Virus record (IMG/VR): IMGVR_UViG_3300044950_000794
Coordinates: 1-55,871 of that record
Direction: 5' to 3' (one strand)
DNA length: 55,871 nucleotides
Source of the DNA: a virus
Lineage: Duplodnaviria > Caudoviricetes
Under the pieces are notes generated by a model. The model saw only the letters and a list, made by a program, of their open reading frames with translations, ran no database searches and was not told the DNA's origin. The translations under genes and the position numbers were made by a program. Positions 5,168 to 54,824 of this stretch are shown in pieces (position 1 is the stretch's first letter; each line of letters begins with the position of its first letter).

Positions 5168-8100
5168 CTATGGTGATACTATGTCGCAGAAGAAGGTTGC
5201 GCGGCTGTTTATTTGGTCGATGCTCACACTGAGGTTCTTGTAACCCCCAGCCGAATACAGTGCGTTAAACGTCGCGTCGTCGTTAGGCGGGGCCGACGCG
5301 ACGACGGACACCCTACGCCATCGAAACCACGACGCGGGGGTGATCGTTGTGACCTCTGCCCCGTTCTTGAACAGTCGCGCGCTCAGTAGCGTGGTTTGCC
5401 CCATACCCACCTTAAACGAGGTACCATTGGAGGACTCTATACCAACGGTGAAGTTAAATCCAGTCTCGAAATAGATAGACCACGCCAAGGGGGTGCCCGT
5501 TAGGATATAGCTGTTTCCATCCGTAGTATTTCGGTAAACCGCGTTCTGTGCCCAAGCGGCCCCAAGCCCCCCCTGTGTCGGCGGCGTGGAGAACGCTCCA
5601 ACATAGTTAATTGACGGCACAAGACTGTTGGCGGCCACCTGTGATATAGCAATCTGTGAGCCATTCACCCATACGTAGGCCCCTGCCCCCACTTCACCGT
5701 TGGCCCCGAATACAAGGTCACCGGAGGCGTCCAACACGTTCAAGCCTCGTCCGTCCACGTCAGTGTTGACGACCGCGTGAGTCGTGGCCTGCCCGACGTA
5801 TACCAGTCCCGACCTAACCAATGGCGTGCCATGTGCCACCGTACGCGCCCAGAAATGCCGTGTCTCCCCGGTGCCAAGTCCTACCATAGTGAACCTCTCG
5901 GACGGAGTAGCACCGGCCAGAACCGCCGTCGCCTCCACACCGGTGGCACTTGAGTAAATCTCAACCTCCTTGAACGACGGTAGGTCCGAGGGGTTTACCC
6001 ACTTCACTTGGATTTGCCGTATACCCCCGACAACGACGGGGGATGACACGTTAGGCATGATATAGTCCGCAGGCCTTCCCGTGACGTCAAACACAAGGAG
6101 GCTTGTGTCATTTGATTTGCGACCAGTTCCATCGTATGCACGTAAGACTGCATGATATCTTGCCCCCGCTACTAGGTCTGGGAGCGTCACGGTGTTATTC
6201 ATCCGCAGATCAATGGTCCTCCACTCCTGCCCACGTATGCGGTAGGACAACTCATACCCGCGCACGCGCGGGTCAGTGTGGCGTGTGAATGCAAGCTGCA
6301 CACTCGGGCTGTCAGCCGCACCCGGTGCGGGCGCTACGAACTCAGCCACCCGGAAGTTCTGTGGGACGGGTAAGGCCCCGGTGGGCATAAGCGGCTCCGG
6401 GAAGGATGGTAACTCGTAGCCACCCTCAATGATGCCATACTTGGAAGGATCATGCTGTAGTGCTGTTATCTCATACTGGTCCTTGCCCACTTCTCGGTTT
6501 GCCAGCACACGCCATAGCGTGTCGGGGCCGCTGATCTTACGCAAGGCCCAGATAGTTTCCAAGGGATTGGCGGTGAGTTCGGGCAGTGCAACACTAACGT
6601 CTATCACTGCCGTGCTGCCGCTGGCAGACGTGACGGTCCTATAGTGCAGCGCGCGTTGCTTGTCGTGGATCACCAGTTCGTATGCTTGCCCCGGATCAAG
6701 GTAGACAGACCGGTCTAGTGTCACGGTGTTGGTGGTGTACCCCGACAAGCGCCCGCCCATGGAGACGCCCATGGTCGATGGGTCCATGACGCGCACTACA
6801 CTCCCCGGCCCTATGTCGAAGTGATCGGGACCGGCCACGTACGTGATAACCTCACTCTCCATCCTTTCGGTGTATAGAAGCCACCGCCCGGCCCGAACCG
6901 CTTGCGCCCGGCTGGTACACCCGAAAGCGATAATGTCGGTAGGCCGCAGCCCGTTTTTGAAGATGCCCTCACGGTCGTCAACCGTTACCACATCGCGTTT
7001 GTAGAAATTGGCAGGGTTGTTATAGGTCACGTTCACCCTGTTGTGCACGGTCAAAAGGCTTGCCCCTTTGTAGGAGAACTCACCGTCAACGGTGTTGGCG
7101 CGTGTCACGGTAACCTCCGGGTCGCGGGGCATGTCAGCCGTGAACATAACGCTGCCTAGGGCATAATAAATCATGCCCCTGAACACACTGGACATAGCGT
7201 TCAGCAGTTGGTAGGCCTCAAAGCGCGTGCTAATATAGGCGTTGAATGAGAAGCGCGGCTCAAGGCTTCCGTCCCCATTATCCACCAGAGGGGCGCAATA
7301 CTGGCTGATGGCATATAGCGTAGTGTCGTCAAGGTAGGTTTCCGGTATGTACCGGCCAAGGCCCCACCGCTCATTTCGCATCACCGCTCGCAAGCACCAC
7401 GCGGGGCAGTCAGTCCATTCCTCTTTGAACGCACCGTTCCATATGCCGGTGTACACCCGTGTAATAGGGTCAAAGTTGACAGGCACCGGGCAAATCAGAC
7501 CCTCGACTAGCACAGCGCGCGACGGGATATTGTTGCCGAACTGCTCCGCGCTAGCGGATATCGCAAGAAGGGCGGTGTGTGGGTACACGAACTTTTGGTC
7601 AATGATCTGGGTGTATGAGAAGAAGTGCACTTCATTGGCGAGTTCAGTGCTGTCAACGGCATCGTCAGTCTCGCGCACAACACGAACGTTCCATGGTCCA
7701 GCGCCCGTCAGGTTGAACCGGTGGGCTAGGAACGTGGGGCTGGTACACTTCTGGTTTGACAGGACGAAGGGGCTACCGGATATGTCGATCCAGCTTCCGC
7801 CAGATGGCTGGTACTGTACGCGGTAGCTTACGTCGGTGACCAGCATATCGCCTTTTTCTTTGTTCAGCTTCCATAGCTGGGGTATCTTTATCTGCACCCG
7901 CACTGCGTCGGTAAGCTGCTCATTGATAGTCCGAACCACGGGTGTGGCCTTGACAACGTGTGTGTCAACCACAATCTCTGCCTCCTGAGAGGAAAAGCCG
8001 GGGATGGCGCTTTGGTCTGGCAGGCCTAGACGTGTGTGGTAGGTCACGCCCTTGAAGTTAAGAGCGCCCCCTTCGTCATACAACGGTACTTCGTTCAGAT

Positions 8101-8284
8101 ACGGCGCACTGATAGACTTGATAGGCCCCTCGCATATAGCCTCAAGCAGGCGAATAACGTGGTTTGACTGTAGGGTGTTGGCGTCAGTTCTGGGGGAACT
8201 GCCCGCCTTGCCGCCCGCCCCATGGGCCACCGTGGAGAACCCATCCACAGCCCCGAAGTCCTGAACAAACGAGTTAATTCCCAT
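5168..8284 (-). CDS. Central tail fibre / host specificity protein (lambda gpJ / TipJ-like)
   Basis: Motifs LLEAICEGPI, YPHTALL, YTGIWNGAFK..WTDCPAW, EPRFSFN, FGCTSRAQA.RAGRW.LYTE, plus FN3-like domains. Start placed at MGINSF just after the gpI stop; the longer ORF overlaps gpI. Confidence 0.92.
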   Translation of the reverse strand: MGINSFVQDFGAVDGFSTVAHGAGGKAGSSPRTDANTLQSNHVIRLLEAICEGPIKSISAPYLNEVPLYDEGGALNFKGVTYHTRLGLPDQSAIPGFSSQEAEIVVDTHVVKATPVVRTINEQLTDAVRVQIKIPQLWKLNKEKGDMLVTDVSYRVQYQPSGGSWIDISGSPFVLSNQKCTSPTFLAHRFNLTGAGPWNVRVVRETDDAVDSTELANEVHFFSYTQIIDQKFVYPHTALLAISASAEQFGNNIPSRAVLVEGLICPVPVNFDPITRVYTGIWNGAFKEEWTDCPAWCLRAVMRNERWGLGRYIPETYLDDTTLYAISQYCAPLVDNGDGSLEPRFSFNAYISTRFEAYQLLNAMSSVFRGMIYYALGSVMFTADMPRDPEVTVTRANTVDGEFSYKGASLLTVHNRVNVTYNNPANFYKRDVVTVDDREGIFKNGLRPTDIIAFGCTSRAQAVRAGRWLLYTERMESEVITYVAGPDHFDIGPGSVVRVMDPSTMGVSMGGRLSGYTTNTVTLDRSVYLDPGQAYELVIHDKQRALHYRTVTSASGSTAVIDVSVALPELTANPLETIWALRKISGPDTLWRVLANREVGKDQYEITALQHDPSKYGIIEGGYELPSFPEPLMPTGALPVPQNFRVAEFVAPAPGAADSPSVQLAFTRHTDPRVRGYELSYRIRGQEWRTIDLRMNNTVTLPDLVAGARYHAVLRAYDGTGRKSNDTSLLVFDVTGRPADYIMPNVSSPVVVGGIRQIQVKWVNPSDLPSFKEVEIYSSATGVEATAVLAGATPSERFTMVGLGTGETRHFWARTVAHGTPLVRSGLVYVGQATTHAVVNTDVDGRGLNVLDASGDLVFGANGEVGAGAYVWVNGSQIAISQVAANSLVPSINYVGAFSTPPTQGGLGAAWAQNAVYRNTTDGNSYILTGTPLAWSIYFETGFNFTVGIESSNGTSFKVGMGQTTLLSARLFKNGAEVTTITPASWFRWRRVSVVASAPPNDDATFNALYSAGGYKNLSVSIDQINSRATFFCDIVSP

Positions 8285-8286
8285 GA

Positions 8287-9414: not shown

Positions 9415-9420
9415 AGCGTA

Positions 9421-10239
9421 CTACCCCCGATATCGCATGACCTTGTGCAGGAACCTTCCCCATTGCACGAGGGGGTCCGTCTTGCTTATCTTGCCGTGCA
9501 TGTGGTGAAGGAACAAGCCCTCGCTTACGTATACTCCACAGTGTGTCACTACGTTATGCCTCAGCTTGAATAGTAACCCGTCACCATCCTGTATATCGGC
9601 CCGCTCAACCTCGTGGTAGCAGTCGTTAGTCATATGTGTGATTAGCGGGTTTTCGGCGGTACGGTCATCCCACCAGTCCTCGGCCCTAGGGTAGTCTGGG
9701 AGCACGTTTCCGAAAGCTGCCCAGTGATAGTGCCGAACCATCGCGAAGCAGTCTGTAACTCCCGACCGAAAGTCTCGGTGCTTCAGCGGGGGTACGGGTA
9801 GCTGGTCGCCCCACCCCCAGAAGTCCATGAAGGTGTTCTTGTGTGACAGGGTGCAGACGTAGTAAGGCACAGCCATGGTCAGTTGTGAGGATATGTCAGC
9901 CGGGCTTGGGGCTAACTCCCCATGGGGGTGTGAATGGAATACGCCTTGTAGCGTTCCGTCCAGCATGTGCTTGCGTGTATGCTCCCGACCTATAACGAAG
10001 TGGCCGCGCCGGTCCTCTGCCTCGTTATCGCAGGGTAGGTAGCGCACCCGGTGCGGCCCGTCCTCAACAAATAGCCCGCACGCCTCGTCAGGCCACTTAG
10101 CGTGAGCGTGGTGTATGGCGTCTTGCTTGGCGTCCTCGCCTATTGACGCAAGCGGCCTACCATGGGGAAGCCCCCGAATGGGGTTTCCTCGTCGCGTCCA
10201 TAGCGCGCCCGACAGCCGGTCTTCAGTTGGTGTGAACAT
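9421..10239 (-). CDS. Tail tip protein K (JAB/MPN + NlpC/P60)
   Basis: P.EACG, FHSHP, PS.AD (JAB domain); GVTDCF, HCGVY, LHH (NlpC/P60). Exact start uncertain because it overlaps gpL. Confidence 0.9.
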   Translation of the reverse strand: MFTPTEDRLSGALWTRRGNPIRGLPHGRPLASIGEDAKQDAIHHAHAKWPDEACGLFVEDGPHRVRYLPCDNEAEDRRGHFVIGREHTRKHMLDGTLQGVFHSHPHGELAPSPADISSQLTMAVPYYVCTLSHKNTFMDFWGWGDQLPVPPLKHRDFRSGVTDCFAMVRHYHWAAFGNVLPDYPRAEDWWDDRTAENPLITHMTNDCYHEVERADIQDGDGLLFKLRHNVVTHCGVYVSEGLFLHHMHGKISKTDPLVQWGRFLHKVMRYRG

Positions 10240-11761: not shown

Positions 11762-14700
11762 TTAACCATACGGTCTGACAGCGGGGTTGAACATGCCGCC
11801 GTTACGCTGTTGCTCGGTGATGAACTCTGCGAAGGCTGCCCGCATGTGCGCGTCCAATGATTTCATGAGACCCTCGCTCTGGGTCTGATCATCTTTACCA
11901 TTACCCGCACCCGGTGCGCCGCCAGAGGTCTCAATGTGGTAACTTGGGGCGTAGGTTCCTATATGGATACCCCCGTCGCGCGCGCCAGAGCGGCGCTCAG
12001 CACCGTTGGCCTGTTCCAGAGTATCCACCCCCGCGCCGTAGCCGCTAGGCCCCTGAGAGGCCAGCGTTGCGCGCTGAAGCAGCCCAGCCACCTCCCGCAT
12101 GGCGGAAAGCACGTCAGACATATCGCCCCCTATGCTCCGTACCGCTAGAGTTCCGTCGCCGGTGCGCGTGAGGGGCATCAAGGCTTCGTCACCGGCCTCG
12201 CCCATCAGCGCCATGGGGATAGTCTGGCTCTGCTTGAAGACGTTACCTTTGGCACTGGCCACAGTCCGGGTACCGCCGCCGAATATGCCGCCGAATAGGC
12301 TGCCAAGGAAGCCAAAGAAGCCACCCCCACCACCACTACCTCCGCCAGACATTGCTGACTTTAGGCGCTCAAGGATGGGCTGAAGGATCATGGCTTGCAA
12401 TGCGAACTTGATCAACTCAGACCCCATCTGTTTGAACGCGGTCCCGAAGATATCAGCAAGCCCGCTCATGTCACTGAAGCCCTTCTCAAGGATATGGTCA
12501 ATGACGTTATCGAAGCTATCCGATAGCGTGCCCACCAACGAAGACGCCACGTCGGACGCGTCAGCAATGTTCCGTGATGCCTCGTCAAGGGCTTGATACA
12601 GTTGTGGCAGGAGGCGCTCATTCTCCTGTACGGCACGACGACGGTCCTCGACTAGGCGCTGTAATGCGTCGGCCTCAGCCGCCGTCATGGTTATACCCTT
12701 AGCCTGTAACTCCTGTTCCATGCGCATGTAGTCAGCGCGCATTGCACGGGTCTCCCCGTCAAGGAACATGGTATCAACCAGTTCTGAAGTCTCGCGGTGG
12801 TAGTCCGCTACGACCTCGGATAGACGCCCATAGGCCTCTATTTCCGCGTTGGCCTCCGCGACCTTGCCCGCACCGCCGCCGTTACCTCCACCAGAACCGC
12901 CCTTGCTCGCAAAGCGCTCTTCGATGGTCTTCATACGCAGGCCGTGCGCCTCCGCCGCCGTCTCAATGGCCGCATCGCGTTCGGCACCAACTGCGACGGT
13001 CTTGCTGATACTCTTGGTCAGTTCATCAAACTCGCGCCGCTCCTGCTCAATAGCCCGGTCACGCGCGGGTAGACTGCTCAGGTGGGCTTCATCGGCATAG
13101 TCCTTCAGGGCCTCAGCGGATGACCGGGCGGCCTTGGCCGTGCCGTCAAGTTCGGACACGACTGCGTTGTACTGCGTTGTCAAGCGGGCGCGTTCTTGGG
13201 CTGCCCGTTCAAAGGACATAGTCCCCGCGTCAACCTCGGTGGCTACGGCGGACACGCCTTCCTTGTACAGGTTGTTCGCCGCGCTAAGCTGCCCCTGCAT
13301 GGCCATAGCGGCTTGGAAGCCCGGCATCATGGCCATAAGCCCGGACATTGCCCCGGTCGCGTTCATAGCCGCACCGGCCAGATTGTTAGCCCCACCAGCC
13401 GCCGCGTTCAGCCCCCCGGCTGCCCCAGCCCCGGCCCCTTCAAGCGCGGCTAGGGCGGCCTCCATGGCCCTGACGTCCTCCTCAGTAGCCCCCAACTCTT
13501 GGGCTTTCCTGATCATGCCGACGATAGCCGTGACGGTATCAGCCCCGAGCCGTTTCGTCTCGTCTCCGGTAAGCTGCGCAGTGCTAGCCAAGTCCTGAAG
13601 GCGGGCGATCACACCGTCAATTCCTTCGGTCTCGTATAGCTGGTCAAAACGATTGGCCATGGCCACCTTACCAAAGGCACTGTTGAACCCTGTCTCAAGC
13701 GCGGATGCCTCAGCCTCTGCGTCAGCGAACACTTGGCGCAACTCTTGCCGCATTGCGTCCGCTTGGTCGGCAAATGCTCGCTGCGCTTGATCCACCTCCT
13801 CGCGCTTGATAATGGCAAGCTGCTCTTGCAGTTCCTTGTTCTTGTTTATGCGCTCGTCAATGGCCGCGATTGCGAGTGTGGCCGCGTTCTGCGCGGCTTG
13901 GCTTCCGGTAGCCTCAGCATCCTCAAGCGCCTTCTTCTGCGTGGTCAATTCAGCGTAGTCAGCCGATAGCTTCTCGCTCACACTGGAAAGCTGCGACGTC
14001 GTGACGGCTGCATCGGCCATGACTTGGTCAAGAGACCGGGCGCTTTCACGTGTGCTCAGGAAGTAAGCCCCAAGCCCGACACCCGCGCCGATCAGCAAGC
14101 CCATAGGGCCGCCCAAGAACCGCAAGGCTGTGCTCAGTGCCGTGACAGCCGCCGTAGCCACGCCAGACGCAAGCGCCAATGGGGATAGCGTACCGGTCAA
14201 CAACCCGGCTGCGATGATTGAGAAGCCTATGCTCGTGGTCATTCCGGTGATCGCCGTGACCAGCGCAGGGATTGCCGTGGCCGCAAGCCCGACCATGACA
14301 GCCACAATGATATCAAGGTTCTCCGCCACGAAGCTTACTGCCCCTGTGAAGGTCTCAAGCGCGGGCACAACTATAGACAGAGCGACCTGTCCGACAGCCA
14401 ATGACACATCTTTGAATAGGGCCATCTGCACGTTTAGGCGGTGGGACAGGCTATCTGCGACTTTGTTGAACGCCACGTCAGTGGCCCCGGCCCGGTCTCG
14501 CATCATATCCATAGTGCTGGCCAGTGCGTCACCGCCGCCGCCTGTGAATGACAGTACCGCGTTGAGGCCCTCAACGTCGGTGAACAGGCGCGACAGTGCC
14601 TCTGATGATCCGCCAGATTTGGCAATGACGTCCTCAAGGAACGCTTCAAGGCCCTTGCTGCGCAGCGCCGCCGTGCTGAACTCAAGCCCCATTTCCTTGG

Positions 14701-15499: not shown

Positions 15500-15865
15500 T
15501 TACCTCCTCTTAGTTCCCGCACCCGGTGCGCCTCTGTCCTTGCCCGTGGTGCGTATCTCGGCAAGTGCGCTGTCTATGATGCCCATGGCGTCAACGTAAG
15601 TGGCTGACTGGTCACCTAACCCACCCGCCTCGGGCAGTACGCCCTTGTCAGCGAAACGGTGTTGGCGCATGAGGACATTGAACATGTGACGCTGGTCTCT
15701 GATAAACCTTAGTGGGCAGTGCGGTATCTTGTCATTGCCCATTATCGTTATGTTCTTGCCGTCCTCCGTGCACCCCCAAGTAGTCTTCATGCTCGCCGTG
15801 CATTTGTTACAGTCGCGGTCAGGAAGCAGGGACCGCGCCTTGACTGCGAGCCTTAGAAGTTTCCC
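15500..15865 (-). CDS. Tail assembly chaperone, frameshifted C-terminal (gpT-like) part
   Basis: The -1 frame from the GGGAAAC heptamer is open (KLLRLAVKARSLLPDRDCNKCTASMKTTWGC...) and joins ORF 15500-15790, which carries LP..GG..DQ. Confidence 0.8.
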   Translation of the reverse strand, partial: GKLLRLAVKARSLLPDRDCNKCTASMKTTWGCTEDGKNITIMGNDKIPHCPLRFIRDQRHMFNVLMRQHRFADKGVLPEAGGLGDQSATYVDAMGIIDSALAEIRTTGKDRGAPGAGTKRR

Positions 15866-17738: not shown

Positions 17739-17776
17739 GTTTTAGGCTCCTTGCCGTTGGCGCACCGGGTGCGGGG

Positions 17777-19115: not shown

Positions 19116-19202
19116 CGCGCCTCTCCTGCTAGGCGCACCGGGTGCGCCGTTGGTGACTTGTACAGTGCACCACCGGCCCGGTCAATCAGGTGTTGGTATA
19201 GG

Positions 19203-23251: not shown

Positions 23252-23331
23252 ATCCGTGTTCCTTGTGCTTGCGCACCCGGTGCGCTTTCGTATCCCTAAT
23301 GTAAACCAAAAGGGTTACAAGTCAATAGGGG

Positions 23332-37218: not shown

Positions 37219-39918
37219 TCAACGCCGGGCGTGAGGGCTGGCCTCCTCGCCGGTGTCTGTGCCGTCATCGTCGCCGCCATCTTCAGGATCACCGGCGCGC
37301 ATAAGGAAAGGCTGAGCCAAGCGGTGCAGGCCGGTCTTCAAATACTGAACCTCGCGGGTCGGACGCAGAGCGTGGCCAGTCGGCATGGCAAAGTCAGCGC
37401 GGGCGGGCATCAGCCAATCCATGGCGAAGATCAAACCATCATAAGCGAAGGTCGCCAAGCGTTGCACGCTGTCGAAGAAAGTGTCAGCAATGGCGGCCAT
37501 GTGCATGATCAGCGTGTACAAGGCGTGGTGCAGTCGGTGCGGTTTCATGTCTCGTCCTCTCGGTTGGTGCCCCTGTCTTCTCTGCCTTGCGCCGGGGCTT
37601 GGGGTGCGCTCGGTGTCTTGACTATGGCGCAACGTGCGCCCTAGGTCAACAGCAGTATCAGCGTAGTGGCCAGCGCCAAGGCCACCAGAACCACGGGGGT
37701 GGGGGACAGTTTCTTGCCGCCCGCCTGCACCGCGTTGTCACGGGGCGGTGCCTCCTGCCCCGGCTCTGCGGCTTGGCCCTGCAAGGGTGCCCGCACCGGG
37801 TGCGTTACGTCTGTGAGGTGTTCTCGCATCAGGTCAACCATGCGCTCTTGACCATCGCCTATCTTGACCAGCAATCCACGCAAGGTCTGAAGCCGCTGCT
37901 CGTAGGTGGCTACCAGTCTGAGCATGTCGGTGGTGTGGGCCTTGGTTGGCTTGGCTTCTCCGCGCGTCACGCGGCGGGCATGGGCCACGATAGCCAACGC
38001 CTCAGCCGGTTTCATGTGCGGGGTGGTCGGCGCGTCATTCATCATCACATATCCTCAATGACCTGATAGCGGGCCGGGATAAACTCGCTGATCGGGCGGT
38101 TGAATGTCAATAGCCCATAGAAGGGGCCTATAGGTGTGTAGGTTGCGGTCAGAACCATGTCGTGCTCACGGTAGCTGATATCCGTCACGTGGTAAATCTG
38201 GCCGCTCTTCAGGTGCAGGAACTTGCGGTTGTGCAGCATACGTCTTGCCGTGGTCAGCCCTGCCATGAGTACGGCATCGGTCTTCCTGTCAGTGCTTGTC
38301 ATTTTGCTCTCGCCATGTTGGTGGTTCGGTGGTCATAGCGCGTCACACGGCTTGGGTTGCTTGGGTGTCACAATGACACGGTACCTGCACCGCGTTCCGG
38401 GTCTGATCTTGTGCACCCCGCCATACCCCTTGCGGCTGCCAGTGTACACCGGCTCAGCGTACATGGTCTCGCCTCGGAAGGTGGTATAGGCCCCCACCAC
38501 AAAGCATCCACCTGATTGCTCTGCCAGTACCCATGCCCGCGAGTTCGCCTTTCGGCCCGTCAAGCTACAGGACTTCTTCATTCTTTGTCTCCCCATACTT
38601 GCACGTCAGACACATGGATAGCATCAGGCCCGGCGATGTTGAGCAATGACCCCACCAGCATCTTGTACCGGCCCTCTTCGTCTGCGGCCAAGAAGGCGTA
38701 CCGGCGCTCGCGTGCCCATATGTGCTCTGGCATACAACAAGAGAAGTCAGGGCAACACTCGCCTGTCCTCAGGTCATCAACCGCACCGGGTGCGGTGCCA
38801 CCGGGTGACCACGGGTTGTGCCACGGCCTGCCCTCACACCACTCACGCAGTTGATGGGCTTGTGCCTCGGCGTAGCTTGTGTGCACGGGCGCTGCACTTG
38901 AGGCCATTACGCTCTTAGGCGTAGCCCCAAGCGCAGTGACGATAGCGTCTGCCACCAGTTCGGCTTGGGCCTTGCTCATGCGCACCCCGCCATGCTCTGT
39001 CATGGTGCCACCTCGCCGCCGTCGAACAGGTGCCACACGGAGAGGCCGTGTGTCTGGTACGTGCTGATATAGGTCATGTCACTGAGTTCAGGGGTAAGCC
39101 ACCCCGTGCCTACCACGGATACCCGGCGCATGACCTTAGAGGCCTCAGGGTTAACCAGTGCCCACATGAACAGATCGCCTGCCTGCGCGCCAAGGCTGAG
39201 GAGTTTCGCCCCGGTGGGCATCTTGATGTTCTGCCCCTCCTCAATCCTCACGGGGTACTTGAATACAGTAAGTGTCATGGCTTGCTCCTTGTGGCCGTTG
39301 CTGCTACTTGCTTGTAACCCTAATGGGCTACAGTGTCAAGCCCGGCTCGCCTGCGAAGAACTGCTCCAACGCCTTGGCCATGACCTCACACATAGCCTTC
39401 TGTAACTCAGGGTCGCGCAGCGTATCGGTGTTGCACATGATTGCGATCTGACCAGCGAACCTGCCATCATCCTCGTGGAAATGGACTGAACCGCCGACAA
39501 CGCTTGAGTATGCGCCAACTTTGACTTTCATCAGGTCAGTCCTTTATCCAGCGTTCTGGGGTCATGTCTGCGGCTCCTTGATCAGGGTGAGGATGGCGTT
39601 GTGGTTCGCCCACCCTGCATGTCGCCGCCCGTCTGCATAATCTCCGCTCACGAAATCTGTATTCGGGGTGCAAATGCGAGCCGCCTCACGCAGCGCATCC
39701 GCCCGCACCTCTGCCAGCATCGCGGCAAGCGCGGCGGGGTCTAGGGCTGCGCATAGGGCGTCTGACTGCTTTTTAAGTTCCGCGTAGTCAAGCGCATGAA
39801 CCCATTTCTGCCCGTCAACATTCGGGCCACCGTTGGTTGTGCACACTCGCGGGCATTTTGGCCTCTGCATTGCCTCGATCAGCGGCGCGACAAGGCGGGA
39901 TAGGTCAATGGGGGTCAT
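37219..39918 (-). CDS. Run of hypothetical genes (incl. 37641-38048 with C-terminal TM, 38045-38302, 38578-39003, 39000-39278, 39328-39531, 39562-39918)
   Basis: Tiled, ATGA-coupled ORFs. 38045-38302 resembles DUF1653 (H.K.G..Y.V...RP..EF); 39000-39278 has the recurrent V.KY....I.MP.GA..L...Q.....WA.V motif. Confidence 0.55.
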
Positions 39919-41237
39919 GCTGCACCGCCTTTCATGATTATGTGCTCTGCTTGTGCTGGGGTGGGGATGGCAGTGTCCTTAAACAGTTGTGGGTGCTTGA
40001 GTGATCGCAACCCAAGCATTTTTAGTTCTGAATACAGACGCATCCACTCGTCGCCACATGCTGCGGACCGGAGACCCGCTCTTGTAGCGTGGTAAAGAGC
40101 CTCGCCGGGGTTAACAGAGTGGGGCGGTGCGTATACCGGGCATCCACGGGCTTTGTCATAAGCCGCGTCATGGGCTGCAATCAGCGAGGCAGCGTCCATC
40201 ACACGCAGTTCTGGCGGGATATCAGACCGGCTCACACCTATGTGCGGCGTGCCGTGGTGCTCGCATCCCTCGTCTTCACATAGCCCCCCGTGGGCCTTGC
40301 CAGATGCAGGGAGCGTGTCTCCATAGAAGGGTGCCCAGCCTACTACCTCCCCTTCGCCTTGCGTGAAGCAGTCCTGTTCCCAGTTCCATCCCGCGAAGTC
40401 CCACCGGTCTTCATCCGTGTCCTGTAGGTTGTTGAAGCCTATCGTCCACGCAAGCCCGGCGTCCTCAATCGCGTTTGCTCCGTCCTCCCGGTAGTCAACG
40501 AGCAATCTCAGCAGGGTTCCGTCCTTTGGCGCGGTGCCCATAGCGTTGACCTTAGGCCACCACGCGGGTGTTGGGTCACCTTCTGGCGCACCGGGTGCGG
40601 CTTGTTGGGGCGGGTCCATGGGAACCAGCCCGTTACCGTAGGCCGCGTTGATGGCGTCCTCAAGCTGAGGGTACAGGCCAAGCCGCACCATCATGCCCCG
40701 CACCGTTGAGTGTCGGCCCACACGGGTATCGTCAGTCTCTATGACGTGGTTTAGGATATACTCCTGCCCGGCTGCCTTCAGGACGTCCTCAACCGATAGC
40801 ATGTCCACGACCTCCTTACTGCCTTCCTTAACCGCCATGATCACCGTGGCATACTCGTCAAGTGCCATGCTGTCATTAGGGTGGGTCAGGTGCCGTTGCA
40901 GTATGGGCAAGGCCCACTCGGCTTGTACGAGTAAATCGTCGCGGTGCGTACGCAGGTTGCGCACTATCATGTGATGCTCGTTGCGCGCCCGACGATCTGT
41001 CTCGGCGTTGATGCGATTACCGTCCAGTAGCGCCTTCTCACGCAACTCTGCGGCCACAAGACGCTTGCGCAACTCGACCACCTCTAGCCGCAGAGCATCC
41101 CGCTCAATGACGACCGCGTGCGTCTCCTTCCACGGTACCCACGCCCCGTCGGCCCGGCGCAACATGAGTGCGGCGTAACCATCTGTGCCACGTTCCAGCT
41201 TGAAGCGGGGCAGTGTCGTTGCGGTATTCTCGGTCAT
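39915..41237 (-). CDS. Mosaic hypothetical protein with DUF551-like TAPKDGT module
   Basis: 440 aa; coiled-coil N-terminus; M.TAPKDGT...W....W module typical of phage accessory proteins. Confidence 0.65.
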   Translation of the reverse strand: MTENTATTLPRFKLERGTDGYAALMLRRADGAWVPWKETHAVVIERDALRLEVVELRKRLVAAELREKALLDGNRINAETDRRARNEHHMIVRNLRTHRDDLLVQAEWALPILQRHLTHPNDSMALDEYATVIMAVKEGSKEVVDMLSVEDVLKAAGQEYILNHVIETDDTRVGRHSTVRGMMVRLGLYPQLEDAINAAYGNGLVPMDPPQQAAPGAPEGDPTPAWWPKVNAMGTAPKDGTLLRLLVDYREDGANAIEDAGLAWTIGFNNLQDTDEDRWDFAGWNWEQDCFTQGEGEVVGWAPFYGDTLPASGKAHGGLCEDEGCEHHGTPHIGVSRSDIPPELRVMDAASLIAAHDAAYDKARGCPVYAPPHSVNPGEALYHATRAGLRSAACGDEWMRLYSELKMLGLRSLKHPQLFKDTAIPTPAQAEHIIMKGGAA

Positions 41238-41241: not shown

Positions 41242-43917
41242 TTACTCCCCTATGCTTGTGCATGACATGCGGGGCGGGTAGGCCGGGGTGGACTTGTCCT
41301 CTGCCCCCGCGTCCGATGCGAAGAACGCACTGATGCGGTCCTCAACGGCGCTCAGGTCCATGGCGTAGAGGTATGGGTGCTTGGCCATGCGCTCTTGCAG
41401 TTCCGCCCGCATACGTGCGCCCTCGCCCGTGCCCTTGGGTACGTCGTGGAATGGTGCGCAGCCAATGTTCAAGCCGATGCGGGTAATGCGTCCGGTGACA
41501 GTGCTTGGGTACTGCATGTGCTGCCCGCCCGGCGCACCCGGTGCGGTTTTGCCTTTGATGGTCTTGGTGGTCATAGCGTGTGTCCTTTGTCTGTGGTCAC
41601 GTGGTTTGGTCTACAGGCTTAGCAGGATCAGGGCTATCAGGCAAACGACTATCAACTGTGGCTGCCGTCGCCTCAAGGCGGTCATGATGCTTCCGTGGGT
41701 GGTTGTGGGCTTCTTCTTGCTGCAACAGGGGCACGTGAAGTTAAGAATATCACACGCGGGCACTGGTGGGGGTTTGGGGTAGGGGGCGTAGTCCCGCTGG
41801 GAGGGCTTTTCAGCAGGGTGTGGCTCGTGGGGCGTGGGTTGGTGGTCCTCAATGCTCATGGCTATTCTCCTGCCCGCTCTGGGCTGCGTTGGCTGGCTCA
41901 GTGCCCGTAGTGTCCGACGTTATAGGCCAGCACGATCAGGCTACAGGTAAGCATAGGCATCAACAGGCCGGGCACTACTATCTGGCTCTTGCCTTCCACC
42001 CGATTGGATACCCATGTGGCCACGCTCGTTGCCAGCACGGCGAAGAAGGCAACTATAGATGCGTGCTCAAGTGCATCCAGCGCTGTCAGCAGCATTACGA
42101 TCTGTGCGTTCATGTCTCGTCTTCCTCCCCGTGGAATGGTGTTGGTGGTAGTGTGGCCAGCCACTCATTGACCTCTGCCGCCCTGACGCTGCCTTGGGTC
42201 CGTAGCATAGAGAACGCCACTGGTCTGGCCCGCTTGCGTATCCTGATGGCATCAGGCTTTTTTGACGGTGCAGTCATAGAAGGCCACCTCCGTGTCTTGG
42301 CCTTTGATCCAACGCATGGTCTCGGTTGTCCCCGCCCCTCGGTTCCCCCCTGTTTTGGGGTGACGCAGTGGGCGGTATCCCCGGCGATGTAGCCATTTGG
42401 CCAGCCGTGGGTTAATGACGCTCTCCACGTCAACGATGGGGTACAGGCTTTCCAGTGCCCCCACTACGGTGGGCATCCGGCCTTCGCCCATCTTTCCATC
42501 TGCCGCGTTGATGTTTGACAGGATCACACGGTAATGGCCCCAGCGCATATACACCTCAAAGGGGGCTGTCTCGGGGCCGTGGTACTGCATCCACGCGCTG
42601 ACCAGCCGGTTCTCTTTCCACTCCTCGGGGGTTATGTCGCTAACCGGCTCGCCCACGGCGTTGATGCACCGTGCCTTCTCCATGGTAAACGCGTGCAGTA
42701 CCGTGCCGATTGGTCGGTGTGCAGTGGCAAGGGTGGTCATAGGCTTTCCTCTGTCTTGGTTTCGGACGGGTCTGGAAACGCGCCCATGAGGTGGTGGTTG
42801 GTGTAGGCTTCAATGGCCCGTAGCACATGCTCTGCGCTGAGGGTGTCAGGTGTACCCCGTGCGAAGGCTTTGGTGCACAGGTCTTTGATGGTGGCCAAGG
42901 CTTGCTCTGCCTCTCGCACCCGGTCTTTGAGCGGGGCGGTCTCATGGGCCACGACGCGCTGGTAAGAGGTACAGGCCCTCATGCGTATCTCGGCCACCCC
43001 GCCGTCAAGGTTACGGCGCGCGGCTATGCCGTCCCGCATGGTGGCTTGCACTGTATAGACGAAGTCTTTCACCCGCATGGGTGTGGCCACATGAACGTCC
43101 ACGACGACACGTGCCCGCTTCGGTAACAGATAACCGGTCATATGTGACCTCCCTGCATTGTGACATAGTCGTTGTACAGTTCCCGCACTTGCACGCTAAA
43201 CTCGTAGTCGTAGCTTGTGGCCAGCCCGAACACATGCCGCCAACGCAGTTCTTCTCGCTTGAGTTCAACGACGTCGTAGGTGCCACCGGTGCCCGGCGCG
43301 TAGAAGACCCAGATGCTCTTGCCCTTTGGCAGGGGCTTAATGGCGTGCGTCTTGAAGTTCAGCTTGCGTACCATCCACGTGATAACCGCTTGTGCTTCCG
43401 CCCCGAGTTCACTGTAACGGTCACGCAGTTCCCCCACGTCGGTAATTTGCTTGATAGCGCTCATTGGTCAGGCCGCCTCAACATGCCGGGTCCGGGTGCG
43501 CACGCGGAAGGGCATAGGCATAAACTCGCCACCGCTCAGCTTCACGGGTCCAGACGGCCCGGCCACCCACACGCCCGCAAGGCTCTCGCAGTCCATGCAC
43601 GGTGGGTCAACGAAAGGGTGTGTGGTGTTAGGCAACAGGTGGGCGAAGGCGTCACCACGCTTGCATAGTGCCTCGCTGGTGATCATGGCCCGCTTTGTGA
43701 TGCCTGCCTGCATGGGGCCACCTGAGCAGTGTACCACCTTGTCGTAGTCGCTTGCCCCAGCCCGGACGTAAATGCTGGTCAGACCGTCGCTCACGCCCAT
43801 CAATTTACAGCGCGGGCACTGGTAGGCAAAACGAACACCGCCCGATGCTGCGGGCACGGGCGGTAAATTGATGCGTTCAAAGGTGTGGGCGGGGTGGTGG
43901 AATGGTAGACGTATCAT
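41242..43917 (-). CDS. Run of hypothetical genes (41242-41574, 41611-41859, 41898-42113, 42110-42277, 42252-42740, 42737-43141, 43138-43464, 43468-43917)
   Basis: Coupled ORFs downstream of the promoter at 43947. 42252-42740 is weakly GNAT-like (G.G....VESV.N.RLA.WL.RRGY); two are small membrane proteins. Confidence 0.55.
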
Positions 43918-43988: not shown

Positions 43989-45116
43989 CTATATCAGGGT
44001 CACGCCCCCTCCCGTCCGCATGTGGCTGCGCAACAGTTGCTTGACCTCGGGGGGGATCACCGACGAGGAGGAATAGCTTCTGCCCGTGCGGTCACTGTCC
44101 TTTCCGATACCGTCCAGATCGCCACGCTTGTACAGATGATATGCCAGCATGGCGCACGCCTCTGATACCTCAGGGGCCACGTACCCTTCGGCGTGCTTCC
44201 ACTCCGTGTGTGACAACTCCAAGTCAATGAATGACACGCGGGCTACGTCCGTGGCTGCCCCCTCGATGGTGAGACGGTAGGTTGGGTAGGCCGTAGCCGG
44301 ATCGCCGGGCAGTTGATACGTCGTCAGCGGCAACGGGTTCGGTGAGTTCACCTGCTTCATGGTCACAGGGCTTCCAATCAACGGCACGCCTTCCAGCTTG
44401 ACCGTGGTTGCCTGCCCGCTGGCCAGAATAGTTCCATCCCGTGGGCCATGCACAGTCATCTTGTGCAGGGCTGTCAGGGCCTCTGGCGTGAAATCAATGG
44501 TGGCCGCACCCGGTGCGGTGAAGGCGCATGAGGCGCACGCCCCCGCCCCTTTGATCTGCACACCGGTGAACAGCAATCCAGCGGGTGCAAAGGTCGTTGA
44601 TAGGCCCATGGAGGCCATGGCCGATTTGCGGTCCTCGCCAACCATCACGTCATAGGCGCTGCCCGTGGTGGTGGTGTAGGAAACCCTTAGCCCGTGTACC
44701 ATGGTCTGCGGGTTGAAGCGCAGTCGGATGCGGCCAAGCCCCGGTTCGTAGATATAGTCAGTTGGCTGCACGAGCAAGGGGGCGTCTTCCCAGTCAAACT
44801 CGTCATCATAGGGTGCCCCCGCGCGGTAACGTACCGTCAAGCCCGTGAGCGCCCCCCTGACGGGCAGGTCAAATACCGCAGGTGTGCCCATACCGTTGGA
44901 TGCGGCCATGCTGGCCAGCGGCCCGCTCACGCTTGCTCCCACGGTGTCTAGCAAGAACACCTGCTCTGTCTCGGCAAGAACCATGCCGGTGAAGTCAAGG
45001 ATCAGTGCGGTAGCTGTCAGAAGATGCTTACGCAGTTCAGGCCCGGCAGACAAGGCACTGTCCCGACTGGGCATGAAGCCCACCAGACGCTGGATTGAGG
45101 ATAACGTGGTAGTCAT
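43989..45116 (-). CDS. Head-tail adaptor/connector-like protein with inserted domain
   Basis: N-terminal L..AT..I..F.G and C-terminal P.V.EAC......Y....S.S.....IP.EVK.LL motifs; follows the capsid genes. Confidence 0.7.
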   Translation of the reverse strand: MTTTLSSIQRLVGFMPSRDSALSAGPELRKHLLTATALILDFTGMVLAETEQVFLLDTVGASVSGPLASMAASNGMGTPAVFDLPVRGALTGLTVRYRAGAPYDDEFDWEDAPLLVQPTDYIYEPGLGRIRLRFNPQTMVHGLRVSYTTTTGSAYDVMVGEDRKSAMASMGLSTTFAPAGLLFTGVQIKGAGACASCAFTAPGAATIDFTPEALTALHKMTVHGPRDGTILASGQATTVKLEGVPLIGSPVTMKQVNSPNPLPLTTYQLPGDPATAYPTYRLTIEGAATDVARVSFIDLELSHTEWKHAEGYVAPEVSEACAMLAYHLYKRGDLDGIGKDSDRTGRSYSSSSVIPPEVKQLLRSHMRTGGGVTLI

Positions 45117-47416: not shown

Positions 47417-48700
47417 TTACGCGGCGAAGCCCAGCCGTTTCAATGCGCGGCGCTCGCTCTCGCGTTTAGCCGCAACGTCTTCGGCGGTTTCGCCGTTGTC
47501 TTCGCCGGTGCCTTCTGAAGCATCCGCCGATTTACGCTCTGGCACAATGCGCGCCGTGGTGGTGTCGGTGTCATCCGACTTCGTGCTGGCCTCCATGGCG
47601 ACTACCGCCATGGTGTCCAGTGTCTTCTGCATGGCCGCGAGTTGGCCCATCATGGCCTTCATCGCGGGGTCTTCGGACAACGGCGCAACCGGTGCAGCGC
47701 TGATTTGCTCTGCGCTCTTCGCGGTTCCCTCGGGCTGTGCTGCCTCGGGCATGGCGAACAGCAACTCAAGCAGCGCGTCAATAGCTGCCTCGTCCTCCAC
47801 GCTCTTGGTGGTAGTGCCATCGCCGGTAGCGTCAATGATGGTAGCATAGGCCGCGTTCAGGGCCATGATACCCCGCACAAAGTCCCCGGTCAGGGCGTTC
47901 AAGCGCGTCTCGTCTGCCCGCCCGGCCTTCATCAGCTTGCGTAGTTCGGTCATCATGGCGTCAGTCAGCGACCACATACCGGGTGGCACGCCGCCCGTGT
48001 ACTCAGCCACGGTGTCGGCGAACGACTTGGCGGTGATGCCCCGGTCAGCCGCAAACGCTTCAAAGTTTCCACACGCGTCAACCACTGCGTTGATGGACTG
48101 CCCGCCCACGCTCAGGATGGTAGCGCCCTTGCGCTCACGCTTGCGGATGGGCTGGTCAATGGGTGCGTCAGCGCCCTTGGCTGCATCCTCAGTCGCACCG
48201 GGTGCGGGTGTGTCGTCAGCAGCGGCATCGCCATCGGCAAGGGTGTCCGCGCCATCCGCGCCCGCATTGTCCGAACCTTCCTCGGTCTTCGCCACGGCGG
48301 CCACGGGGTTGCCCACCACGTAGGTGACGCCCTTGTGGGTGGGGCTTTCGACCGAGCGCAGCGCGCCGTCAATCTCGGCCTCAGGTGCGTCCTCGACATA
48401 GAACGAGCCGTCATCCTGCTTCACGACTGCGAAGTCGGTGTAGCCCTTTCCGGTCATGAACTTGGTCACGGAAGCCTCGTCTACGAAGCCATCGCCTGCG
48501 AACACGATACGGTGCAGCTTCACGGCGGAGGCCTGCTTCGGGGTTTGGTCAGTGTTGGGCATAGGTGCCTCCATGGTGTGGGTTTTCACCGCGTGAAACG
48601 GTCGTTGGTTTGCCCCGTGCTTGACAAGCGAGACAAAGAGCGGGTCGGGGTCGTACATGACGCCAACGATAGTCTTGGCACGGACTGAGGTTCTCTTCAT
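47417..48700 (-). CDS. Scaffold-like protein with N-terminal FVSLV.HGAN motif
   Basis: Between protease and capsid; acidic low-complexity linkers; several KS/KT possible cleavage sites. Confidence 0.65.
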   Translation of the reverse strand: MKRTSVRAKTIVGVMYDPDPLFVSLVKHGANQRPFHAVKTHTMEAPMPNTDQTPKQASAVKLHRIVFAGDGFVDEASVTKFMTGKGYTDFAVVKQDDGSFYVEDAPEAEIDGALRSVESPTHKGVTYVVGNPVAAVAKTEEGSDNAGADGADTLADGDAAADDTPAPGATEDAAKGADAPIDQPIRKRERKGATILSVGGQSINAVVDACGNFEAFAADRGITAKSFADTVAEYTGGVPPGMWSLTDAMMTELRKLMKAGRADETRLNALTGDFVRGIMALNAAYATIIDATGDGTTTKSVEDEAAIDALLELLFAMPEAAQPEGTAKSAEQISAAPVAPLSEDPAMKAMMGQLAAMQKTLDTMAVVAMEASTKSDDTDTTTARIVPERKSADASEGTGEDNGETAEDVAAKRESERRALKRLGFAA

Positions 48701-49380: not shown

Positions 49381-49456
49381 GGCCCATTCCGCATGACCTG
49401 TGAAGTGCGTGTTGATTTATGCTGCAAAGTTAGCGCACCCGGTGCGGTGTGCTACG

Positions 49457-52668: not shown

Positions 52669-53249
52669 AGCATAAGCCCCGCACGTGTTGCCCGCTCCAT
52701 GAGGTCTTGGGGTACGTTGCGTCTGACGAAGTTCCGCACCCGGTGCGGCGTAAGCACGTAACCGTCAAGGTGCATGATCCCTGACAACGCCTTTGCCACT
52801 ATGCGATGGTTGCCGTCTATCACGTGCGCCTGCGTGCCGTCTTCGGACAGTACGACCATCACTGGTTCGTCATAAGTGCCCTTGGCCTTGCGTATCGCGG
52901 CCACGTCCGCTGCGTCCTCAGCCTTCAGGTCGTTGCGCTGCATCATGCCCAGAACCTCGAGCAGTTCTAGTTCAATGCACACGGTGTCATCATTCCTCAG
53001 GTCTTCTCGTAGTGCCTTGACGTTGTACAGGTCTAGGATGCCGTCATGGTCATGCAGATACACCTCCGTAAGCGCCTTCTGGTCCGGGTTGGCCAGATAG
53101 TGAACTGCGGTCCCCGTGTAGTTTTGTCGGCAGTACCCGTGCTCATACCCAGAGAAATGCTCGTTGTACACCCCAGCCAACGGCCTCAGGTTCATGCCGC
53201 ACCGCACGCAAACGGTCGGGAACTTGTTCGGTAACTTCGTGTCAAGCAC
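52662..53249 (-). CDS. ParB/Srx-like domain protein with N-terminal CxxC-H-C knuckle
   Basis: EPVMV......HVIDGNHRI.KA...G motif; CVRC...H.YC. Confidence 0.7.
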   Translation of the reverse strand: MLDTKLPNKFPTVCVRCGMNLRPLAGVYNEHFSGYEHGYCRQNYTGTAVHYLANPDQKALTEVYLHDHDGILDLYNVKALREDLRNDDTVCIELELLEVLGMMQRNDLKAEDAADVAAIRKAKGTYDEPVMVVLSEDGTQAHVIDGNHRIVAKALSGIMHLDGYVLTPHRVRNFVRRNVPQDLMERATRAGLMLW

Positions 53250-54006: not shown

Positions 54007-54056
54007 GTGTGTTCTCCCTCGCTGCCCACCCTTTGTAGCCCTATAGGGTTACCGTG

Positions 54057-54824
54057 TCAAGCGATTGGCCTTGTGCGCTTACGCGGTGCAGGCGGCTCAG
54101 TCGGTCTGACGGCGGCCTCGGCACTGTTAGGCCGCACCGGGTGCGCTACTTTGTCATGCTCAATCCTCACGCGTATCTGACGGCGCGTCTCCCATGCCGC
54201 CGTGTACTGTGCGTCTTGGAACAGCTTGGAAAATCCGGTCACGTGCTTCAGACGTGCCAACTCTTCAGGGATCATCCCGAGTTCGTTGCATATCTCCTTG
54301 TCGTCCCAGCCCTCCTCAAGCATGGCGAACACCATGCTGGCCATGCCGTCAATGGAGTGCTTACCCCGCGCCCGATTATGGCGCACCGTTGACGCCATGC
54401 GGTCGTTGATGGGCTTGTCAATCACAACGATGGGCAAGAGGCCACAGTTACGCTCGTGGATATCCGGGTTGTTCTTGCAGGTGAAGTACCGGTGGAAGCC
54501 GTCAACGATCACATACTTCCCTATGGTCTCGTCCCAGATGGTGACGACGGGCTGCGTGTATCCGTCATTCAGGATTGACAGATACAGAAGGCGCATTTCC
54601 TTCTCGGCCACTGAGTTGGGGTTGTAGTCGTTTGGCTGCACCATGTCCACGGGAACCCAGAGGATATTGTCAACCGGCTGCGCTGCCACCGGGGACAGTT
54701 CTTTGCTGAGGAACGTGCGGACCTCGCCTAGCCACCGCATAAGGGCTTGCGGGTCGTCTGTCCCGTGAGCCTCGTCAATCAGGGCCTTGGCCAGTGTGTC
54801 TGACATTGCGTGCATGGTGGTCAT
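54057..54824 (-). CDS. ibrB: IbrB-like ParB-family protein
   Basis: PVD...WVP...V..NDYNPN.VA..EM.LL..SI..DGYTQP.V, IVDGFHR, RMAST.RHNRARGKH, G..D.EI..ELG...EE..RL motifs. Confidence 0.88.
   Translation of the reverse strand: MTTMHAMSDTLAKALIDEAHGTDDPQALMRWLGEVRTFLSKELSPVAAQPVDNILWVPVDMVQPNDYNPNSVAEKEMRLLYLSILNDGYTQPVVTIWDETIGKYVIVDGFHRYFTCKNNPDIHERNCGLLPIVVIDKPINDRMASTVRHNRARGKHSIDGMASMVFAMLEEGWDDKEICNELGMIPEELARLKHVTGFSKLFQDAQYTAAWETRRQIRVRIEHDKVAHPVRPNSAEAAVRPTEPPAPRKRTRPIA

Follow-up and report, generated by a model that had tools for sequence, protein, structure and literature searches.

The stretch of viral DNA investigated here (the window: IMGVR_UViG_3300044950_000794, Caudoviricetes) spans an entire linear IMG/VR virus record of 55,871 bp, and it carries an array of a 13-bp palindrome, CGCACCSGGTGCG, which occurs in exactly 20 copies, the first beginning at position 6317 and the last at 54133, and in no copy at all in any of 100 dinucleotide-preserving shuffles. 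This array is real, strongly non-random and functionally constrained, and arrays of the same build, each with its own letters, are a heritable trait of a clade of phages of about 80-110 kb. According to CheckV the record is only 56% complete, and the array is therefore truncated. The window has a GC content of 59.5% and essentially all of its genes lie on the minus strand; terminase and replication genes are absent from its 55,871 bp, and its annotated open reading frames (ORFs) gave no match to an integrase family, which in an incomplete record does not exclude one. The phage is present in lake-water metagenome runs, the contigs of which are near-identical to each other, with 18 differing positions in 20 kb and none of them inside a palindrome site; a megablast of 20 kb of the window against phage records gave no match, and a search of IMG/VR with the capsid protein gave no close relative. 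The genes relevant to the following are:

129-5156, minus strand: three large tail-fibre-like ORFs
5168-8485 and 11762-15496, minus strand: lambda-like tail genes, J-like and tape measure, respectively
19531-21324, minus strand: AAA+ ATPase
21-45 kb, minus strand: long run of small genes without assigned function
27127-27564, minus strand: HTH_3 (helix-turn-helix) protein
46.4-52.2 kb, minus strand: portal, MuF-like, prohead protease, scaffold-like and major capsid genes
52662-53249, minus strand: 195-aa ParB-like ORF with the motif DGNHR and an N-terminal Cys-rich stretch
53242-54006, minus strand: N6-methylase-like protein
54057-54824, minus strand: ParB_N protein (IbrB-like)
54821-55861, minus strand: PAPS-reductase/DUF3440 protein (IbrA-like)

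Over these genes and the gaps between them the palindromes are distributed as follows:

6317..6329: inside the J-like central tail fibre gene (5168-8485), read in the frame A-P-G-A
10043..10055: inside a minor tail gene (9421-10239), read in the frame H-R-V-R
11906..11918: close to the 3' end of the tape measure gene (11762-15496)
15518..15530: 3' end of ORF 15500-15790, 22 nt upstream of the tape measure start
17761..17773: intergenic, 23 nt upstream of the start of ORF 16494-17738
19134..19146: intergenic, 19 nt upstream of ORF 18489-19115
23272..23284: intergenic, 16 nt downstream of a sigma-70-like element, TTGACT-16-TACATT (23325-23298)
25043..25055: mid-gene, ORF 24830-25294
26419..26431: variant with one mismatch, TGCACCGGGTGCG
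27625..27637: intergenic, 61 nt upstream of the HTH_3 gene (27127-27564)
30928..30940: between genes, 12 nt ahead of the -35 in a conserved promoter element (30916-30891)
33271..33283: 16 nt downstream of a conserved promoter element (33324-33299) and upstream of a GmrSD_N-like gene
37792..37804: mid-gene, ORF 37641-38048
38782..38794: mid-gene, ORF 38578-39036
40587..40599: mid-gene, ORF 39915-41237
41533..41545: close to the 5' end of ORF 41242-41574
44505..44517: mid-gene, ORF 43989-45116
48194..48206: inside the scaffold-like gene (47417-48700)
49434..49446: intergenic, 54 nt upstream of the prohead protease gene
52735..52747: 3' part of the ParB-like ORF (52662-53249)
54133..54145: 3' part of the IbrB-like ParB_N gene (54057-54824)
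55155..55167: palindromic variant, TGCACCCGGTGCA, inside the PAPS-reductase (IbrA-like) gene

A first-pass annotation of the window, made from the letters alone, had reported 20 exact copies together with the variants at 26419 and 55155, 13 copies within genes and seven outside, and a spread over structural and accessory regions alike. All of them lie where it had placed them, ORF calls made anew give the same split (outside genes: 17761, 19134, 23272, 27625, 30928, 33271 and 49434), and the spread over both kinds of region was borne out. The arms are identical in all 20 copies and only the centre differs, being C on the plus strand in 11 and G in 9. Of the variants, the one at 55155 carries two mismatches and keeps the palindrome; five further two-mismatch strings can be found in the window, none of them palindromic. 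Next to the 13-mer, on either side, stands a G or C in 19 of the 20 copies (P=4e-7), while the flanks are complementary in only eight; the palindrome accordingly does not extend beyond 13 bp, and its length is fixed.

Enrichment over codon-preserving shuffles, one of the checks proposed with the first-pass annotation, is pronounced: when every protein and the codon pool of each gene were kept and the seven non-coding copies were held fixed (n=500), the mean total was 7.18 copies, so that about 0.18 coding copies are expected where 13 are observed. Nine of the coding copies are read in the frame A-P-G-A and four as H-(R/P)-V-R, the third frame being used by none, and all nine A-P-G-A copies force the non-preferred codons GCA (21% of Ala codons) and GGT (20% of Gly codons) on the gene. 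Since two frames are used, non-preferred codons are forced and seven copies are non-coding, the constraint sits on the DNA and not on the protein, as had been claimed from the letters alone. The spacing, too, is far more even than random placement would give, with intervals from 946 to 4521 bp (mean 2517 bp) and a coefficient of variation (CV) of 0.45 compared with 0.96; among 5000 simulations the probability of a CV as low as the observed one was 0.0004, that of a minimum of at least 946 bp 0.0002, and that of a maximum of at most 4521 bp 0.0004. This evenness ends at 6317, the leftmost 6.3 kb of the window with their tail-fibre-like ORFs holding no copy. The segment 1-6316, which comprises the three tail-fibre-like ORFs and the end of the J-like gene, has a lower GC content (0.575-0.583) and no homologues in the six relatives introduced below; the site-free end looks like a recently exchanged host-range module which has yet to acquire sites.

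The statement of the first-pass annotation that the palindromes are placed regardless of gene boundaries goes too far: seven of the 20 fall within the roughly 11% of the window that is non-coding (binomial P=0.0037), and seven of the 20 lie at most 70 nt upstream of the next start codon, compared with 10% of random positions. Part of this placement concerns a second repeat of the window, a sigma-70-like promoter whose spacer is conserved (TTGAC-N3-GTAACCC-N4-GGTTTAC, then a TACATT-like -10). From 19.5 to 54 kb there are at least ten strict copies of it, all on the coding strand and for the most part among the small genes without assigned function:

Promoter elements, minus strand, first six: 19509-19534, 23301-23325, 24808-24833, 25943-25968, 28490-28515, 30891-30916
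Promoter elements, minus strand, last six: 33299-33324, 35591-35616, 36656-36673, 39314-39339, 43948-43973, 54035-54060

These elements are probably early or middle promoters of the phage, and the nearly palindromic dyad of their spacer may be a second operator. The 13-bp palindromes adjoin two of the ten strict elements (copies 30928 and 33271, P=0.03); a third promoter-adjacent copy, 23272, next to an element the spacer of which is one base shorter, was added by eye. All three stand in operator-like positions, the copies 23272 and 33271 about 13 nt after the -10 and the copy 30928 12 nt before the -35, and the remaining 17 of the 20 copies have no promoter neighbour. At 32739-34032, a GmrSD_N (DUF262)-like ORF of 178 aa, which is preceded by the conserved promoter and a palindrome copy, adjoins an HNH endonuclease ORF.

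The first-pass annotation had missed both the occurrence of such arrays across a clade and a printed precedent. Searches with the portal protein led to seven distantly related phages at 31-42% identity (HJ05, L338C, the Rhizobium phage P11VFA, RHph_I4, JP1, RcTiptonus and SM1), six of which were analysed whole and together with the window make up the seven genomes referred to below. When the commonest gapped palindrome of each genome was sought with no prior motif, all six whole relatives turned out to carry a genome-wide palindrome of their own, each expected less than 0.1 times by chance:

Rhizobium phage L338C: TGCAAC-N(1-2)-GTTGCA, 59 copies
Rhizobium phage RHph_I4: TGCAAC-N(1-2)-GTTGCA, 52 copies
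Aeromonas phage HJ05: TTGCAAC-NN-GTTGCAA, 16 copies
Agrobacterium phage JP1: TTGCAAA-NN-TTTGCAA, 33 copies
Rhodobacter phage RcTiptonus: TGCAAT-NN-ATTGCA, 21 copies
Pseudomonas phage SM1: TGCAA-N4-TTGCA, 31 copies

The letters are specific to the lineage and the build, xGCAxx-N1-2-xxTGCx, is common to the six; in build, the motif of the window corresponds to the 13-bp form found in L338C (GCA-N5-TGC). Spacing is under-dispersed in L338C, RHph_I4, JP1 and SM1 (CV 0.53-0.60, P<=0.0012) and, with the strict patterns, not in HJ05 or RcTiptonus, and the non-coding share of the copies in L338C and RHph_I4 amounts to about 35-42%. The clade phages have portal, capsid, terminase and replication genes in common, the core including primase, SF2 helicase, RecA, exonuclease and polymerase. 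With its gene for a tail sheath (L131:1058-2695), HJ05 is a myovirus; it has head, packaging and replication genes as well as the palindrome array in common with the siphoviruses of the clade, from which it follows that the trait travels with the head, packaging and replication modules and not with the tail.

A portal alignment extended the clade to 80 IMG/VR loci, among them about 16 contigs of 84-111 kb; 61 of the loci are at least 10 kb long, and with at least four copies of a single 5+N+5 palindrome as the criterion, arrays are found in 42 of these 61 loci compared with six of 33 unrelated control loci. The versions encountered include TGCAG-, TGAAC-, TGAAA-, TGATA- and CGCAA-N4- arms and CAATCGATTG, and several of the apparently array-negative clade loci hold degenerate versions of the motif. 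A search of IMG/VR with a 14-base version gave, among the matches listed, only single and presumably chance occurrences and is uninformative on other carriers. Bacterial assemblies contributed a further 67 portal relatives of at least 10 kb, and arrays were seen in the two closest of these only, a 96-kb Paracoccus contig and a contig of a Rickettsiales metagenome-assembled genome, five other loci reaching four copies only with low-complexity arms. One unrelated viral contig of the control set (L081) contains nine copies of ATTAG-NN-CTAAT in 14 kb, and palindrome arrays may exist in other phage groups too.

How the sites persist can be followed between L338C and RHph_I4, the DNA of which is 79% identical over 76% of the genome. 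For 44 of the 59 L338C sites the alignment to RHph_I4 spans the site; 40 of these were scored as conserved and two as lost, and two more (30 and 105535) are intact but offset by one column. Of the remaining 15, ten have no alignment and five an alignment that ends short of the site. The arms are unchanged while the flanks are 80% identical and the centre varies freely, even in length at two orthologous sites. Turnover at orthologous positions had been proposed as a check, and with 40 of 44 positions kept the comparison of the sequences indicates that the sites are old and under purifying selection. On a longer scale, a site stands just upstream of the prohead protease gene in five of the seven genomes (the window, L338C, RHph_I4, JP1 and RcTiptonus), and in the other two, HJ05 and SM1, a site lies 137 nt before the portal gene. 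The even spacing, the positions kept amid divergence and the letters that change while the build stays argue for a function on the scale of the genome, and 20-60 sites that have to follow a changing reader, at a cost, and that are written into proteins with non-preferred codons, imply that this function must matter to the phage.

Another concern raised at the outset, that the motif might be an equally common repeat of the host, is excluded for one clade member only, a phage found in a Paracoccus assembly: in these 5.4 Mb, all 48 copies are on the 96-kb phage contig and none in the other ~5.3 Mb. Since zero copies is also the chance expectation for the host DNA, this demonstrates exclusivity and not avoidance. 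The phage, a complete clade member of 96 kb (L249, contig C206 of assembly G001), forms a contig of its own among those assembled from a cultured Paracoccus isolate, which hints at a carrier or plasmid-like state; the matches of an integrase search in this assembly are on contigs other than that of the phage.

The arms being invariant and free of compensatory change, the length fixed and the centre accepted either way, the palindromes are best understood as duplex DNA read by a symmetric protein, and they are probably binding sites for a dimeric protein. The first-pass annotation had proposed such a site, and its symmetry is as expected for a dimeric reader; the proteins it had put forward as readers or writers fared differently and are treated below. 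Pooled over nine genomes and loci, the centre dinucleotide has no strand bias (all binomial P>0.16), and a bias seen in L338C, with 11 TT and two AA, disappeared after pooling. An alternative would be a hairpin of 5-bp stem forming in single-stranded DNA of either strand and read by the replication and recombination machinery of the clade, for example at lagging-strand starts or for fork restart. A palindrome works on both strands, the primase, SF2 helicase, RecA, exonuclease and polymerase are clade core genes, the 1.9-3.0 kb spacing falls into the range of bacterial Okazaki fragments, and the 1- or 2-bp centres of L338C and RHph_I4, the one feature fitting a hairpin better, would make loops of 3 or 4 nt more readily than they would suit a rigid dimer. 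However, the predicted stems are weak (-4.7 and -2.5 kcal/mol as RNA), it is the sequence and not the pairing which is conserved, such a signal would account neither for the 3.5-fold intergenic enrichment nor for the promoter adjacency, and we know of no precedent for a repeated priming signal of 13-14 nt, all of which renders this explanation quite improbable. Still further down ranks a hairpin acting at the RNA level, in termination, processing or stability of long same-strand transcripts, which we consider very improbable. With all genes on one strand every copy would be transcribed, seven copies lie between genes, and one copy was caught by a terminator-like scan, albeit on the non-coding strand; but no U-tract or T-run follows the copies on the coding strand, the centre has no strand bias, a 5-bp stem is marginal and thirteen copies are inside genes, some of them mid-gene. 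Known protein-binding RNA hairpins, moreover, have a variable stem and a conserved loop, the reverse of what is seen in the palindromes.

The statement that the motif is unknown from described systems was upheld, its strings being found in no relevant paper of the open-access and bioRxiv literature, where broader keyword searches brought up nothing relevant either; the text of the Rhodobacter phage paper describing RcTiptonus contains neither 'palindrom' nor 'motif'. The closest precedent is the repeat of the Cluster O mycobacteriophages (Corndog and relatives), described as a 17-bp dyad, TGTTCGG-NNN-CCGAACA, in more than 30 copies in a siphovirus genome of ~70 kb, about 14 of 34 being intergenic and the rest genic, with invariant arms and a variable centre (PMC4351075). 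According to the same paper these phages have no integrase and form no stable lysogens, they encode a ParB-like domain protein and an AAA ATPase, and the authors predict a dimeric DNA-binding protein with a role other than transcription initiation, leaving the function unexplained (PMC4351075). The two systems agree in their invariant inverted arms, free centre, dozens of copies and genic as well as intergenic placement, and differ in sequence, in length (7-3-7 in Cluster O, 6-1-6 or 6-2-6 here), in host phylum and in distribution, the Cluster O sites being denser toward one genome end whereas the spacing here is even (PMC4351075). No shared genes were shown between the two; here the sites are traced over a deeply diverged clade with lineage-specific letters and conserved positions. 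In the open-access literature and bioRxiv, no later paper explaining the Cluster O repeats was found. The clade-wide family of palindrome arrays is previously undescribed, while its kind is known from Cluster O and unexplained.

Scattered short dyads read by a dimer are also known as Noc, MatP and SlmA sites, as the dispersed centromeres of prophage N15 and as the conserved inverted repeats of Streptomyces phage phiC31. To our knowledge, however, these are cellular or belong to temperate elements, are fewer per kb and have not been reported to be even or to be written into coding sequence at such density. The stoperators of Cluster A mycobacteriophages are 13 bp long and occur in dozens of copies, about one per 2 kb. 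They are described as asymmetric, oriented with transcription, bound by the immunity repressor and a feature of temperate phages (PMC4351075). They share with the palindromes the 13-bp length, the genome-wide spread over short intergenic gaps and genes, and co-evolution with the reader, and this likeness in density, placement and lineage-specific letters, as far as the source depicts it (PMC4351075), suggests a different reading of the array: stoperator-type operators or roadblocks for a fast-evolving HTH repressor, here the HTH_3 protein (27127-27564), serving genome-wide silencing or timing and lineage-specific immunity or exclusion. Such a repressor would accord with the copy that precedes the HTH_3 gene by 61 nt, a place expected under autoregulation, and with the three copies in classical operator positions at conserved promoters. 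The palindromes, in contrast to stoperators, are symmetric and not oriented (centre C:G 11:9), an integrase was found in none of four relatives searched and none among the ORFs of the window, and the HTH_3 protein, which the first-pass annotation had listed among possible readers, is an orphan with no detectable relative in the six genomes, its family occurring in two of four relatives searched. Nor did the genes at most 120 nt downstream of sites in five relatives reveal a shared DNA-binding family: of 65 ORFs, eight matching core genes (protease, portal, AAA+, primase etc.) were left out and the other 57 scanned. We therefore regard a stoperator-type repressor as unlikely.

Other readers and writers can be judged by whether they are inherited together with the arrays. 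The cluster at 52300-55861, directly upstream of the portal gene, comprises the PAPS-reductase/DUF3440 protein, the IbrB-like ParB_N protein, the N6-methylase-like protein and the 195-aa ParB-like ORF, and invites the explanation that the palindromes are sites of a covalent mark, such as methylation, or of a nick, serving self-recognition or protection, written or read by the methylase, the IbrA/IbrB pair or a ParB-like nuclease. Besides the clustering of these genes at 52.3-55.9 kb, such a mark would agree with the adenine kept at arm position 4 in most motif versions and with ParB-fold/methylase fusions, which one study describes as common in phages (PMC12704722) and which occur in HJ05 and SM1. 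The proposed writers are, however, dissociated from the arrays. The N6 methylase was rejected, its family being present in none of five relatives, and PAPS reductase was found in one of the five searched. The IbrA/IbrB pair, counted among the candidates of the first-pass annotation, is absent from four of the five array-bearing relatives searched (L338C, outside these five, carries it according to its annotation), and its homologues turn up in loci without arrays: neither the eight IMG/VR loci with close IbrB homologues (58-71% identity) nor the two metagenome loci of at least 10 kb with IbrA relatives contain an array or a single motif copy. The IbrB-like family is in fact very large, with 7945 proteins at E<=1e-10, many of them 60-78% identical, from metagenomes. 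Protection alone would furthermore select against sites and not for evenly spaced, conserved ones, and a dimeric nickase acting on a palindrome would cut both strands. A covalent mark or cut target is hence improbable, and the module at 52300-55861 is without a tie to the palindromes. The 195-aa ParB-like ORF (52662-53249) has one detectable relative among the six genomes. Rejected likewise were an HU-like protein, present in one of five relatives, and the AAA+ ATPase, which occurs in all seven genomes but the ATPase part of which resembles p97/Msp1-type unfoldases and not DNA binders; its N-terminal region of ~350 aa has no assigned fold. Iterated profile searches across the clade yielded no small conserved DNA-binding protein.

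What the clade does have in common, apart from virion and replication genes and the AAA+ ATPase, is a ParB-fold protein. ParB_N was found in all five relatives searched, and in JP1 and RcTiptonus the gene of one subfamily (240-310 aa, motif SGHHRxKAA) neighbours that of the large terminase at 6-7 kb upstream of the portal; HJ05 and SM1 have more distant ParB_N ORFs upstream of their terminase genes. At E<=1e-90 the subfamily is present in 20 of the 61 clade loci and in none of the 33 controls, and among the 67 relatives on genome contigs it gave one strong match, in the array-bearing locus L252, and three weak ones. An AlphaFold model built from a 16-sequence alignment (predicted local distance difference test score 74.6, predicted template modelling score 0.46) aligns in Foldseek over 180-235 columns with Noc, ParB and KorB chains comprising the nucleotide-binding (N-terminal) and the DNA-binding domains, at E 9e-9 to 6e-8, the KorB chain 8qa9 at E 6e-8. 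Noc, ParB and KorB alike bind short palindromes as dimers. In the region of the nucleotide motif the clade protein reads SGHHRxKAA and the window proteins DGFHRYF and DGNHRIVA; the arginine-patch motif we take to be GERRxRA, or more loosely GxxRxxA, and the ParB-like proteins of window and clade fit the loose form only, a form not found in PMC12704722. The ParB_N match within the window is weak (E 3e-4, below the Pfam cut-off) and lies in the IbrB-like protein dissociated from the arrays. Judging from homology and gene neighbourhood, the terminase-adjacent ParB-like protein is tentatively the best remaining candidate for the reader, and by synteny its gene is predicted to lie just past the right end of the record.

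The KorB protein of plasmid RK2 has 12 operator sites, some of them beside promoters and others far away. In the KorB paper, the operator appears within a Methods oligonucleotide as a 13-bp palindrome with a central G/C, TTTAGCGGCTAAA, and KorB is described as a ParB-family clamp which loads at its site and slides to repress at a distance (PMC11790492). On that basis, KorB and its operator OB are by analogy the best mechanistic counterpart: both systems have a 13-bp palindrome with central G/C in multiple copies dispersed over the replicon, RK2 being ~60 kb in size. They differ in that the density here is higher, most copies are genic and the carrier is a lytic-looking phage instead of a plasmid, in that the ParB-fold proteins of the window have DGFHR and DGNHR and not the canonical arginine patch, and in that no KorA-like partner was identified.

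We propose that the 13-mers would be double-stranded DNA sites for a phage-encoded, two-fold symmetric, sequence-specific protein and that together they would form a private mark over the whole phage chromosome, no gap within the array exceeding about 4.5 kb. Each lineage would have its own letters on the same build, with arms of 5-6 bp and a free centre of 1-2 bp; lineage-specific letters on a constant build imply that sites and reader must co-evolve. The reader would be the clade-conserved ParB/Noc/KorB-like protein whose gene adjoins that of the large terminase ~6-7 kb upstream of the portal, and by analogy with KorB of RK2 it might load at the palindromes and act both there and at a distance, possibly in repressing or timing transcription, for which the three promoter-adjacent copies and the conserved copy before the prohead protease gene could be used, and possibly in marking phage DNA as distinct from that of the host. 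This full account, a ParB/KorB-like reader acting on transcription and self-marking, draws on analogy and has in our estimation somewhat less than an even chance of being correct; the ParB-like reader, judged on its own, we consider less likely than not. A bolder version, in which a large clade of ~100-kb phages of Proteobacteria would have a lineage-private barcode every 2-3 kb that loads a ParB/KorB-like nucleotide switch, which slides over the genome and marks it as self towards the host and co-infecting relatives, seems rather unlikely to us; the mark could then serve to time transcription over the genome, to protect against nucleases or defence systems, or to choose DNA for replication and packaging, and the evenness of the spacing would follow from the limited reach of each clamp once loaded.

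Several observations weigh against a ParB/KorB-like reader. The candidate gene is outside the window, its presence in this phage being only predicted, and the association of ParB and array is confounded by shared ancestry. The loci L199 and L200 have the ParB-like gene yet no detectable array in 21 kb, and L188 and L195 hold only two copies each, while the ParB-family proteins in the window are either dissociated from the arrays or have just one detectable relative. The template modelling scores of the Foldseek alignments are low (0.30-0.42 by query length, with a root-mean-square deviation of 13-16 A). As regards the sites, a rigid dimer should reject a mixture of 1- and 2-bp centres, of which L338C has 12 and 47 copies, respectively, and orthologous sites switch between the two; 13 of the 20 copies in the window are inside genes, far from any promoter, and with an integrase in none of four relatives a lysogeny-type repressor role has no obvious place.

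One further observation on the window concerns 39371-39933: two other lake runs contain a contig that matches this stretch apart from 15 base differences and a rearranged joint, and that is covered far more deeply (118x and 14x); the small genes of this segment seem to be common to another, more abundant element.

Dispersed invariant dyads, a puzzle of one small mycobacteriophage group that has gone unexplained since 2015, are now seen also in a deep and widespread clade with hosts in Rhizobium, Agrobacterium, Rhodobacter, Paracoccus, Aeromonas and Pseudomonas and with many uncultured relatives. The arrays offer a sequence signature by which metagenomic contigs can be assigned to the clade and recently exchanged modules, such as the 6.3-kb tail-fibre end, can be spotted, and several members of the clade are in culture on harmless laboratory hosts, so that the reader and its effect are directly testable. 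If the reader proves to be a ParB-fold switch, clamp-and-slide gene control, a mode recognised only recently, would extend from plasmids to lytic phages.

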